Assembly (NCBI GenBank): GCA_012842045.1
Contig: DUTP01000001.1
Span: 94,534-143,121, forward strand
DNA: 48,588 nt
Direction: 5' to 3'
DNA from: Candidatus Dojkabacteria bacterium
GTDB taxonomy: Bacteria; Patescibacteriota; Dojkabacteria; SC72
The notes below the pieces were generated by a model. That model had not been told where the DNA came from, ran no database searches, and worked only from the letters and a program-made list of their open reading frames with translations. Below, in pieces: positions 25,144-27,757 of the stretch. Numbering within the stretch: the first letter of the stretch is position 1; every line of letters starts with the position of its first letter. Both the position numbers and the translations under genes were made by a program.

Positions 25144-25689
25144 TTATATTGTTAGTAATTCTTTCTCTTTATCTATTCTGATTGTTTCGATATCTGCATT
25201 AGCATCTTTAACTACTTTTTCTGCTTCTTCCCTTATCCTATCTGCTTCATCTTCTGATAATCCAGATTTCTGTTGTTCATCAATCCCTTGCATAAATTTC
25301 TGTCTTACCTGTCTTACTGCAACTCTTCCATCTTCTATTCTCTCTTTCATAATCTTTACATACTCTTGTCTTCTCTCTTCGGTAAGATCTGGAAGTTTTA
25401 CAATAACTCTATCTCCCTCAATGATAGGTAGAAACCCTAAGTTTGCAGAAGAAATTCCCCTTGAAATGTTCTCTAGTATTGTTTTATCCCAAGGTTGAAT
25501 AGAGAGGCTTTTAGCATCCATAGCACTAATGCTTGCTAAATTCTTTATTGGAGACTGAGTCTCATATGCATTTACTAAGATTTCCTCTACGAGTTCAGGT
25601 GTAGCTCTACCTGTTCTTATCTGTGAGAGATCTTCTTTTACATGGTCTATACATTTTGATATATCCGTTTTAAAAGTATTAATATCCAT
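25144..25689 (-). CDS. frr: Ribosome recycling factor
   Basis: IRTGRATP, IQPWD, LTEERRQE. Confidence 0.97.
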   Translation of the reverse strand: MDINTFKTDISKCIDHVKEDLSQIRTGRATPELVEEILVNAYETQSPIKNLASISAMDAKSLSIQPWDKTILENISRGISSANLGFLPIIEGDRVIVKLPDLTEERRQEYVKIMKERIEDGRVAVRQVRQKFMQGIDEQQKSGLSEDEADRIREEAEKVVKDANADIETIRIDKEKELLTI

Positions 25690-25760: not shown

Positions 25761-26477
25761 CTACTTCCCTAACTCCCAAAGAAGAATTCTTTTAATTGTT
25801 AGAGGTTCCCCTATCTTCTGAGTAGCCTCATCTAAAAGGTCTTTAATTGTCTTACTCTCATCTTTAAACCATTTCTGTTCTAAAAGACATTTCTCAGAAA
25901 GATACTTCTTCATTTTTCCTTCAACTATCTTCTCAACCATTTCCTTTGGTTTCTTCTCTGCTTCTACTTCTTTTCTAAATGATTCTTCTAACTCCTTAAG
26001 AACTTTTTCATCTATAGATTCTTTTGAAACAAACTGTGGCTTCATTGCTGCAACTTGAAGAGCAATCTCATGTACAAAATCTCTAAAGTCGTCATTCTTA
26101 GAAACAAAGTCAGTCTTACATGTAACCTCTGCTAAAGCCACAAGTTTTCTATCAGCACCATGTACATATGCATCAATTACTCCTTCTACTTTTCCATCCA
26201 CGTCACCTTCTATTGGGTTGTCCCATCCTTTCTCCTTAATTATCTCAACAGCCTTCTCAAAATCTTTTTCTGCCTCTTCATATGCTAGCTTGCAATGACC
26301 AATTTTAGCACCTGTAAGGTTTTTTAATCGTCCAATGACATCACTTCTCTTGTTAATATATTCTATTGCTTTCTTCATATCTCCATCAGATTTAACCAAT
26401 GCTTCTTTACAAAGAGCCATACCTGCTGATGTTTTCTCTCTTAAATCTTTAATATCATTTATTGTTACTTTTGCCAT
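25761..26477 (-). CDS. tsf: Elongation factor Ts (short form, duplicated N-terminal domain)
   Basis: LREKTSAGMALCKEAL, CKTDFV, CLLEQ; between rpsB and frr. Confidence 0.95.
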   Translation of the reverse strand: MAKVTINDIKDLREKTSAGMALCKEALVKSDGDMKKAIEYINKRSDVIGRLKNLTGAKIGHCKLAYEEAEKDFEKAVEIIKEKGWDNPIEGDVDGKVEGVIDAYVHGADRKLVALAEVTCKTDFVSKNDDFRDFVHEIALQVAAMKPQFVSKESIDEKVLKELEESFRKEVEAEKKPKEMVEKIVEGKMKKYLSEKCLLEQKWFKDESKTIKDLLDEATQKIGEPLTIKRILLWELGK

Positions 26478-26499: not shown

Positions 26500-27636
26500 T
26501 TACTTAAGTGCTTTTTTAATATCCTTGATTGATTTCTCTCCCAATCCTTTGATATTTGTTAATTCCTCATCTGTGAGAGCTTCAAGTTGTGCAACTGACT
26601 TAATTCCTGCAGCTTCTAGACTATTTACAATTCTAGTAGGGAGACCTAACTCCTCCATGCCTTTCTTGTCCTCAACTTTCTTAACCTCTTCAGCTTGCTT
26701 TACTTCTTTCTCGATATCCTTTTCTTTCTTAACAACCCTAACAACAGAACCAGTACCAACAGATGCAACTTTACCTTCCCTTAGTGCTTTTGTCCTTTCC
26801 TTTTCTTCTGCTTCCATCTTTAGTTGTCTCTCCTTCTCTTCCTGTGCTTCTTTGGTTAATCTTGCCAACAAAGCTTCATTGTCTCTCCTTAATGAAATTA
26901 CAGAGAGACTCCTCTTTGAGTTTGCTACAACATCACCAAACAAATTCACAAACAGAGAAATACTCTTAAGAGAGTCGTCATTTGCTGGAATTGGATAATC
27001 AATTAAGTCTGGATTACAGTTGGTATCTATTAAAGCAATGATTGGAATTCCAACATTCCTTGCCTCCCTTATTGCATTGCTTTCAACCTGACTATCTATT
27101 ACCAAAATAGCTGTAGGTAATTTGTCCATAAATTTGATTCCTTTGTAGATCTTGTTTAGTCTCTCAATCTCCCTCTCAAGAAGTAGAATTTCTTTTTTAA
27201 CTAAACCTGCACCACCTCTTGCTAACTGCTCTTCCATCTTTACTAATGATTGTACACTCTTTTTGATAGCATCAAAGTTTGTAAAAAGACCACCAGGCCA
27301 TCTCCTATTGATGTAGAACATACCTGTTTTTTCTGCAACATTTTCAACAATTGTTGCAGCCTGTCCCTTTGTACCAACAATTAGAATGTTTCCATTCTGT
27401 GCATATTTATGCAGATTGGTTAATGCGACATCTAGATTTTCCAATGTCTTAACCAAATCTATGATATGTGTTCCATTTCTCACTTCGTAGATATATCTTT
27501 GCATCTTAGGATTCCATGCTCCTTTTTTATGACCAAAGTGAGCACCTACCTTGAGCAAATCTAGAAGTTCGGGCATTTGAAAACTTTTGTTTTTAGTCTC
27601 TGTTTTCTTAGAGACTGTTTTTGTGGCTTCTGCCAT
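26500..27636 (-). CDS. rpsB: 30S ribosomal protein uS2 with C-terminal coiled coil and alpha-CTD-like HhH domain
   Basis: GAHFGHK...WNPKM, RRWPGGLFTNF, DTNCNP..IDYPIPANDD; ~135-aa extension. Confidence 0.97.
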   Translation of the reverse strand: MAEATKTVSKKTETKNKSFQMPELLDLLKVGAHFGHKKGAWNPKMQRYIYEVRNGTHIIDLVKTLENLDVALTNLHKYAQNGNILIVGTKGQAATIVENVAEKTGMFYINRRWPGGLFTNFDAIKKSVQSLVKMEEQLARGGAGLVKKEILLLEREIERLNKIYKGIKFMDKLPTAILVIDSQVESNAIREARNVGIPIIALIDTNCNPDLIDYPIPANDDSLKSISLFVNLFGDVVANSKRSLSVISLRRDNEALLARLTKEAQEEKERQLKMEAEEKERTKALREGKVASVGTGSVVRVVKKEKDIEKEVKQAEEVKKVEDKKGMEELGLPTRIVNSLEAAGIKSVAQLEALTDEELTNIKGLGEKSIKDIKKALK

Positions 27637-27728
27637 ATGCTTATTCCTTTCCTTTTAATTAATATTCCTGAAGGATATCTCTATCCAGGATTGGTTCAGA
27701 AATATATGAGATATATTAAACAGGTAGG

Positions 27729-27757
27729 ATTATACAAATATATGTATTATTTTGCAA
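27729..27757 (-). promoter_or_regulatory. Sigma70 promoter of rpsB-tsf
   Basis: TTGCAA-N17-TATAAT. The leader has a GAGA-tetraloop hairpin at 27666-27690. Confidence 0.65.

Follow-up and report, generated by a model that had tools for sequence, protein, structure and literature searches.

The window analysed here is a stretch of 48,588 nucleotides from a 737-kb, 93%-complete genome of Candidatus Dojkabacteria. Dojkabacteria / WS6 is a lineage within Patescibacteria, the candidate phyla radiation. The genome possesses a single uS2 gene (one match in a genome-wide search), rpsB, which is followed on the same strand by tsf and frr. Homologues of this gene are publicly annotated as '30S ribosomal protein S2', and their sources include Candidatus Dojkabacteria and candidate division WS6. 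The encoded protein consists of an N-terminal extension, a canonical core and a C-terminal arm of 140 residues, which comprises a charged helix, a conserved motif, a variable spacer and a terminal (HhH)2 domain. The following features were mapped at the locus:

25144..25689, minus strand: frr, downstream of rpsB.
25761..26477, minus strand: tsf, downstream of rpsB.
26500..27636, minus strand: rpsB, encoding a uS2 of 378 residues that is extended by a C-terminal arm bearing an alpha-CTD-like domain; the stop codon occupies 26500-26502.
26503..26658, minus strand: alpha-CTD-type (HhH)2 domain, residues 327-378 (52 residues), from PF03118, PDB matches, AF2 and Foldseek.
26659..26715, minus strand: charged spacer, residues 308-326, with a short helix at residues 308-321 in the AF2 model.
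26716..26778, minus strand: conserved arm motif EGKV-x6-SVVRVVKKEKD, residues 287-307, disordered and of low confidence in the AF2 model.
26779..26916, minus strand: long charged, ER/K-rich helix, residues 241-286 (46 residues), AF2 pLDDT ~85-92.
26917..27573, minus strand: canonical uS2 core, residues 22-240, from PF00318 and Foldseek.
27574..27636, minus strand: conserved N-terminal extension of ~21 residues, MAEATKTVSKKTETKNKSFQM, predicted to be disordered.
27645..27652, minus strand: Shine-Dalgarno-like GGAAAGGA, 8 nt upstream of the rpsB ATG, as read from the sequence.
27729..27757, minus strand: promoter-like TTGCAA-17-TATAAT upstream of rpsB, a consensus match only.

The region upstream of rpsB is only 126 nt long. 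Promoter-like consensus sites are not enriched over shuffled sequence (16 observed versus 13.2 ± 3.3 in shuffles), and the Rfam scan of the window matched tRNAs only, with no rpsB leader RNA. These data bear on two functions that a first-pass annotation of the locus had suggested for the C-terminal domain of uS2, namely leaderless initiation and rpsB autoregulation. Neither found support: rpsB itself has a Shine-Dalgarno-like sequence, and no Rfam leader is present. It is established knowledge that uS2 autoregulates rpsB-tsf in E. coli, and the rpsB-tsf-frr order kept in the window would suit a domain that binds the rpsB leader. However, E. coli performs this regulation with core uS2 alone, and the short upstream region without a recognisable leader argues against it here. 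That the domain serves autoregulation of this kind, or else is a neutral passenger without function, appears most improbable to us.

The core of the protein is typical of its family. The Pfam model Ribosomal_S2 (PF00318) covers residues 27-238 with an E-value of 1.4e-75 and 253.7 bits (cut-off 26.1), and the NCBIfam model TIGR01011 (rpsB) scores 273.7 bits against a cut-off of 76.3. In Foldseek comparisons, the AF2 model of the core aligned with ribosomal uS2 chains at an rmsd of ~2-3 Å and a target-normalised TM of 0.8-0.89. Profile, fold, single copy and rpsB-tsf-frr context all match, and the rpsB product is a bacterial ribosomal protein uS2. The N-terminal extension (…KTETKNKSFQ…) displays three invariant residues in the family alignment, V8, T14 and S18, and has AF2 pLDDT values below 50 for residues 1-21. 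In one species of the same genus (L040; G195:C22:11040-12173), rpsB contains an in-frame TAA at codon 154, which is probably an error of the metagenome-assembled genome and possibly the mark of a pseudogene.

The translation of the rpsB reading frame ends with ...MEELGLPTRIVNSLEAAGIKSVAQLEALTDEELTNIKGLGEKSIKDIKKALK. This is the C-terminus, identical in its last 50 residues to the one quoted there, in which the first-pass annotation had recognised a fusion of uS2 to a domain resembling the C-terminal domain of the RNA polymerase alpha subunit, and that reading was confirmed. The Pfam model RNA_pol_A_CTD (PF03118) matches residues 317-378 of the whole protein with an E-value of 4.4e-16 and 58.8 bits, well over the gathering cut-off of 23.8, and the tail alone with an E-value of 2.4e-17 and 62.8 bits. 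HHH_5 also matches the tail, as do several NCBIfam rpoA equivalogs over their last ~80 positions. In a sequence search of the PDB, the best matches of the tail were all RpoA alpha-CTDs, with Thermus thermophilus 1DOQ at the top (E 2.8e-10; 27 of 52 residues identical, ~52%); identity to the E. coli alpha-CTD amounts to 34%. The AlphaFold model of the tail alone (pLDDT 78) contains five short helices, and the HhH2 domain reaches a pLDDT of ~80 in the full-length model. The best 27 matches of the tail model in a Foldseek search of the PDB were all RpoA alpha-CTDs, which made up 46 of the 50 among the matches listed; the rest of these best 50 were of the RAD51/Dmc1 type or an RPOA-RPOC model. Stand-alone alpha-CTD chains superimposed on the model with an rmsd of 0.7-1.2 Å over 52-53 residues. 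The tail of uS2 is thus fully supported as a true alpha-CTD-family (HhH)2 domain.

Two other assignments of the tail were considered and rejected. It is not a part of RpoA, because its host is uS2 and the true RpoA is encoded by a separate gene for 319 amino acids (G000:C6), which keeps its own CTD. These two proteins carry the only PF03118 domains of the genome, and their domains share only 36% identity. The CTD of Dojkabacteria RpoA (L002 754-1713; P0267-P0386) represents a long-branch variant with high conservation (…LPISKRSKTGLL…PGFGNKSLNE…), in which N268 is replaced by T and which scores lower with PF03118 (44.6 bits) than the uS2 tail (61.9 bits). Nor is the tail an AR-type domain of NusA, since again the host is uS2, the NusA of this genome has no HhH domain, and no NusA AR domain occurs among the best 50 structural matches in the PDB.

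The linker to this domain had been described in the first-pass annotation as a charged coiled coil. It is more than that, as it includes a long ER/K-type helix (residues 241-286) and a conserved motif, LREGKV-x6-SVVRVVKKEKD. The fraction of E, K and R in the helix is 0.48 and that of hydrophobic residues is 0.22. Since an E+K+R content of 48% is typical of stiff single-helix spacers, the modelled helix is probably a spacer of this kind, ~7 nm in length. Eight residues of the motif (R286, E287, G288, V298, R300, V301, V302, and K303) are invariant among 40 family members. Versions of the form (K/R)EGK...VVR(V/I)V(K/R) recur across the order, including uS2 proteins that end right behind the motif (L021, L025). 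No model in Pfam or NCBIfam matched the arm alone (residues 241-326), motif included. The segment of residues 287-307 is probably a docking motif. The spacer that follows ranges from ~10 to more than 70 residues between families and varies widely in composition as well. The full-length AF2 model shows no docking of the terminal domain within the molecule and predicts a flexible arm. In some uS2 proteins of family f2 (L022, L023, L024), the arm ends in a Lys/Thr/Ser-rich, histone-H1-like polybasic tail of 60-100 residues, not in an HhH domain.

To determine the distribution of the fusion, the protein was used as query on the complete set of 220 species genomes of the class, which belong to anonymous GTDB families numbered f1 to f22; for some families, the census is based on alignment coverage and ORF length. 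Nearly all of the 99 genomes that represent the window's family have the fusion. It also occurs in the other families of the window's order, partly in f2 and uncertainly in f5, and in five further families: f7, f9, f11, f12, and f17. In total, it was found in the window's family and nine other families of the class, in more than 100 species and without stop codons. In the remaining families, uS2 ends at or before the arm. Three genera of the window's family (g15, g9, and g6) have uS2 without the domain, and the alpha-CTD of RpoA is their sole alpha-CTD. A split gene was rejected as the reason, because these genera have no spare copy of the domain elsewhere; these are therefore true losses, and the domain is dispensable.

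Outside the class, all 58 examined Patescibacteria with at least two PF03118 domains possess a plain uS2. When 185,579 species genomes were scanned with a pattern, the only uS2 hosts recovered came from Dojkabacteria-type MAGs. The tail was also searched against 1.8 billion representative proteins; the best matches were free-standing tandem PF03118 arrays of up to 11 copies, and this search is uninformative on uS2 hosts.

The ungapped BLASTP alignment pairs residues R335, N338, G366, K368, and S369 of uS2 with R265, N268, G296, K298, and S299 of the E. coli alpha-CTD, the sequence of which was entered by hand. All five DNA-binding equivalents named in the first-pass annotation are therefore present in the window's protein; within this '265 determinant', the C269 equivalent is S. 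The family as a whole retains a part of this set. Among 94 distinct uS2 tails, the R265 equivalent is R in 88 and K in 4, the G296 equivalent is G in all 94, as is the equivalent of N294, and the K298 equivalent is K in 93. The R265, G296, and K298 equivalents are thus kept in 94-100% of the tails, but the positions of N268 (K in 62, N in 26) and S299 (A in 66, S in 23) are usually occupied by K and A, so that a specificity of the UP-element type is not indicated. The E261 equivalent is G in 69 of the 94 tails, and the positions of the 287 determinant vary. This pattern suggests that the elements of the HhH fold that grip a nucleic-acid backbone experience the strongest constraint, and that the family has not kept the residues to which the E. 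coli alpha-CTD owes its specificity for UP elements and activators.

Selection was assessed at the codon level by the Nei-Gojobori method using 21 genes of the genus. With dS high and near saturation, the resulting dN/dS values are rough: 0.09 for the core, 0.17 for the long helix, 0.21 for the motif, 0.15 for the spacer, and ~0.22 for the alpha-CTD-like domain. The uS2-alpha-CTD fusion is under purifying selection. A dN/dS of 0.22 in the domain and its conservation over ten families argue against a neutral passenger.

The module is not restricted to uS2, and copies with 40-55% identity to the uS2 tail were found on other proteins in related lineages. Namely, NusA ends in a single PF03118 domain, confirmed with Pfam, in WWE3 as well as in many families of the class (L081, L090, L092, L100, and L129-L135 with the exception of L133); the WWE3 NusA tail scores 77.5 bits with the profile of uS2 tails. 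A ribosomal protein bL21 of 168 amino acids (L083; CAZUPF010000001.1) combines Ribosomal_L21p (E 1.2e-25) with a C-terminal PF03118 domain (E 3.1e-11), and an FtsE-like ABC ATPase of 317 amino acids (L136; G102:C4) also ends in an alpha-CTD-like domain. In the window's genus, a protein of 506 amino acids (L133; G193:C14) has an alpha-CTD-like domain at its N-terminus, followed by a helix-turn-helix resembling region 4 of sigma-70; this type of protein is absent from the window's genome. Since NusA, uS2, bL21, FtsE, and sigma-like proteins all carry the module, the alpha-CTD fold does not belong to RpoA alone but is a portable adaptor. For annotation, this means that a PF03118 match alone is no evidence of RpoA.

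Two further observations were made in the course of this survey. ORFs of a size similar to that of the FtsE-like protein and with PF03118 matches are present in other f2 genomes. Also, RpoA proteins with two or three tandem copies of the CTD occur in L118 and L119 (Caldisericota) and in P0157.

In domain trees, the uS2 tails are placed clearly apart from the long-branch CTDs of Dojkabacteria RpoA. When NusA tails and canonical RpoA CTDs were added, the uS2 tails mixed with those. The alignment holds only ~60 columns, so the trees cannot single out a donor of the domain.

The NusA of the window's genome (387 amino acids; L048 1486-2649) is composed of an NTD, an S1 domain and two KH domains (NTD-S1-KH-KH), followed by a strongly acidic tail of ~45 residues (…EEEQKEDKKEEVEKTEEDKEEITEETVEESTDETAKEE). 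It contains no AR/HhH domain, and NusA proteins of the window's family lack an alpha-CTD-type tail. The first-pass annotation had also proposed that the uS2 domain binds NusA; binding in the manner of E. coli AR2 is therefore excluded in this genome. The search with a tailed NusA covered the 99 genomes of the window's family plus 80 from the other families. Tails are present on uS2 and not on NusA in f1, f4, f12, and f17, on NusA and not on uS2 in f2, f8, and f16, and on both in f3, f7, f9, and f11, while f15 has mostly neither. With all four combinations represented at the family level, the idea that uS2 and NusA tails replace each other was rejected.

These results have to be weighed against the possibility that the domain is a protein-protein adaptor, which would pair with another HhH2 domain or with a component of the transcription machinery (candidates being the RpoA alpha-CTD, the NTD of NusA and region 4 of sigma) in the way E. 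coli NusA AR2 pairs with the alpha-CTD, and would link RNA polymerase and the ribosome through two flexible leashes. The AR2-alpha-CTD heterodimer is established, and its structure (PDB 2JZB) is among the PDB sequence matches of the tail. The NusA tails of WWE3 and many families of the class occupy the position of the E. coli AR domains, and uS2 contacts NusA in the coupled complex TTC-B (bioRxiv 10.1101/2024.03.13.584796). The unusually conserved, long-branch CTD of Dojkabacteria RpoA could be a co-evolved partner. However, the genome's own NusA offers no AR/HhH domain, uS2 and NusA tails are distributed in all four combinations with neither replacing the other, and the equivalents of the 261 and 287 determinants are not conserved. 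The best 50 Foldseek matches also consist mostly of alpha-CTDs and include no AR domain. An adaptor of this type appears rather unlikely to us.

Binding to RNA on or at the ribosome would be a different solution. Here, the domain might dock on a helix of 16S rRNA as a lineage-specific element, or it might act in mRNA recruitment, together with bS1 or in its place, by holding structured mRNA or the Shine-Dalgarno duplex close to the mRNA exit. A precedent is the Kohler expressome, where uS9 and 16S helices 38/39 were the site modelled for a native alpha-CTD, and uS2 is the docking site of bS1, near the mRNA exit (PMC6566652). The conserved VVRVV motif in the arm likewise suggests some docking contact. 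Yet the AF2 model shows a flexible arm with no intramolecular docking, and a spacer of such unequal length is not what a fixed position on the rRNA would lead one to expect. The loss of the domain in several genera, its replacement by polylysine in others, and the presence of the same module on non-ribosomal proteins also speak against this explanation. Finally, the genome encodes a bS1-like protein with four S1 domains, by which a loss of bS1 was rejected as the reason for the arm. On this balance, we regard RNA binding as an unlikely function of the domain.

We tentatively prefer, with less than even confidence, to view the domain as a ribosome-tethered, sequence-nonspecific grip on nucleic acid, probably DNA, that would keep ribosomes near transcription. 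The residues predicted to grip the backbone are kept and those for UP elements and activators are not, which makes a nonspecific grip on double-stranded nucleic acid the most likely mode of binding. Four lines of evidence point to it: backbone residues are retained, a polybasic tail takes the place of the domain in sister lineages, the spacer varies, and the module is promiscuous in its hosts. The conserved equivalents of R265, G296, and K298 fit binding to a nucleic-acid backbone. The wide variation in spacer length fits a tether, not a fixed structural contact, and the same module on NusA, bL21, FtsE and the sigma-4 protein fits a portable, generic binding module. The Lys-rich tail that takes the place of the HhH domain in f2 suggests that generic binding of polyanions may be the selected property.

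According to this scheme, uS2 on the solvent face of the 30S subunit would allow the arm, with an estimated reach of more than 10 nm, to sweep the area of nascent mRNA, RNA polymerase and template DNA. The domain would grip a double-stranded nucleic-acid backbone via the equivalents of R265, the G-x-G hairpin and K298. By holding 30S subunits or ribosomes beside transcribing genes, it would favour co-transcriptional translation in very small cells. A role in transcription-translation coupling is, from the sequence data, a plausible candidate function and our leading idea. The background to it is that RNA polymerase and NusA of E. coli touch the ribosome on the solvent face: uS2 is part of the 30S-RNAP interface (PMC6566652), it contacts RNAP omega in the collided expressome (bioRxiv 10.1101/2020.03.01.971028), and NusA KH1 sits in the uS2/uS5 pocket of the E. 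coli complex TTC-B (bioRxiv 10.1101/2024.03.13.584796).

Several observations count against a nonspecific grip. The terminal domain of the window's uS2 has a net charge of ~-1 and a pI of 5.3. HhH2 domains, such as NusA AR2, can be purely protein-binding. With K and A as the usual equivalents of N268 and S299, minor-groove reading as performed by the alpha-CTD cannot be assumed. Three genera of the window's family have lost the domain, and its presence on FtsE has no obvious explanation by a logic of DNA binding or coupling.

A more far-reaching version would make the arm a built-in device for coupling. The domain would bind template DNA, or else the alpha-CTD or NusA of RNA polymerase, and would leash the ribosome to the transcription complex without bridging of the NusG type. 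It would then be one case of a broader habit, in which bacteria with small genomes connect NusA, ribosomal proteins such as uS2 and bL21, and other machines with the nucleoid by attaching this one portable alpha-CTD module to them. We hold this version to be doubtful, if possible.

In E. coli, transcription and translation are coupled through factors, and B. subtilis largely lacks such coupling. A lineage of ultra-small bacteria with an RNA-polymerase-type domain on the ribosomal protein that faces RNAP and NusA offers a testable candidate for a new form of coupling or of ribosome-to-nucleoid tethering. The fusion also bears on how minimal gene-expression machines are thought of. A full-text literature search revealed no paper describing a uS2-alpha-CTD fusion, and the term 'uS2' does not occur in a survey of CPR ribosomes (PMC9297842). 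Additional new findings of this analysis are the modules on NusA, bL21, FtsE and the sigma-4 protein, the polylysine tails of f2, and the lack of complementarity between uS2 and NusA tails.

Among known systems, the closest is the alpha-CTD of RpoA itself (PF03118; T. thermophilus 1DOQ, E. coli 1LB2/3K4G), which shares with the uS2 tail the (HhH)2 fold, a flexible linker and the R265, G296, and K298 equivalents. The uS2 domain, however, is attached to a ribosomal protein and not to the N-terminal dimerisation and assembly domain of RpoA (PF01000/PF01193). Its linker includes a probably stiff helix and a conserved motif and is ~90 residues long, as opposed to roughly 15-20 residues in RpoA, and the uS2 family lacks conserved N268, S299 and the determinants for contacts with activators and sigma. 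In NusA, too, an HhH2 module terminates a flexible tail, and the protein works as a factor at the RNAP-ribosome interface; this applies to the AR1/AR2 domains and to the single alpha-CTD-like tails seen in WWE3 and Dojkabacteria. They differ in the host, which in our case is a ribosomal protein, and the structural matches of the uS2 domain favour the alpha-CTD over the E. coli AR.

Extensions of uS2 at the same hot spot, projecting from the solvent face of the 30S subunit, are represented by the NCBIfam S2 long form PRK12311, the 'sunset domain variant' NF051451 and chloroplast uS2 of Chlamydomonas. Unlike uS2 of Dojkabacteria, they have no alpha-CTD domain. Should the coupling idea be true, the arm would also resemble the bridge formed by the KOW domain of NusG/RfaH and uS10, as both would flexibly tether the 30S subunit to RNA polymerase or its DNA. 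The putative uS2 tether differs from this bridge in that it is built into the ribosome and ends in an HhH2 domain, not in KOW.
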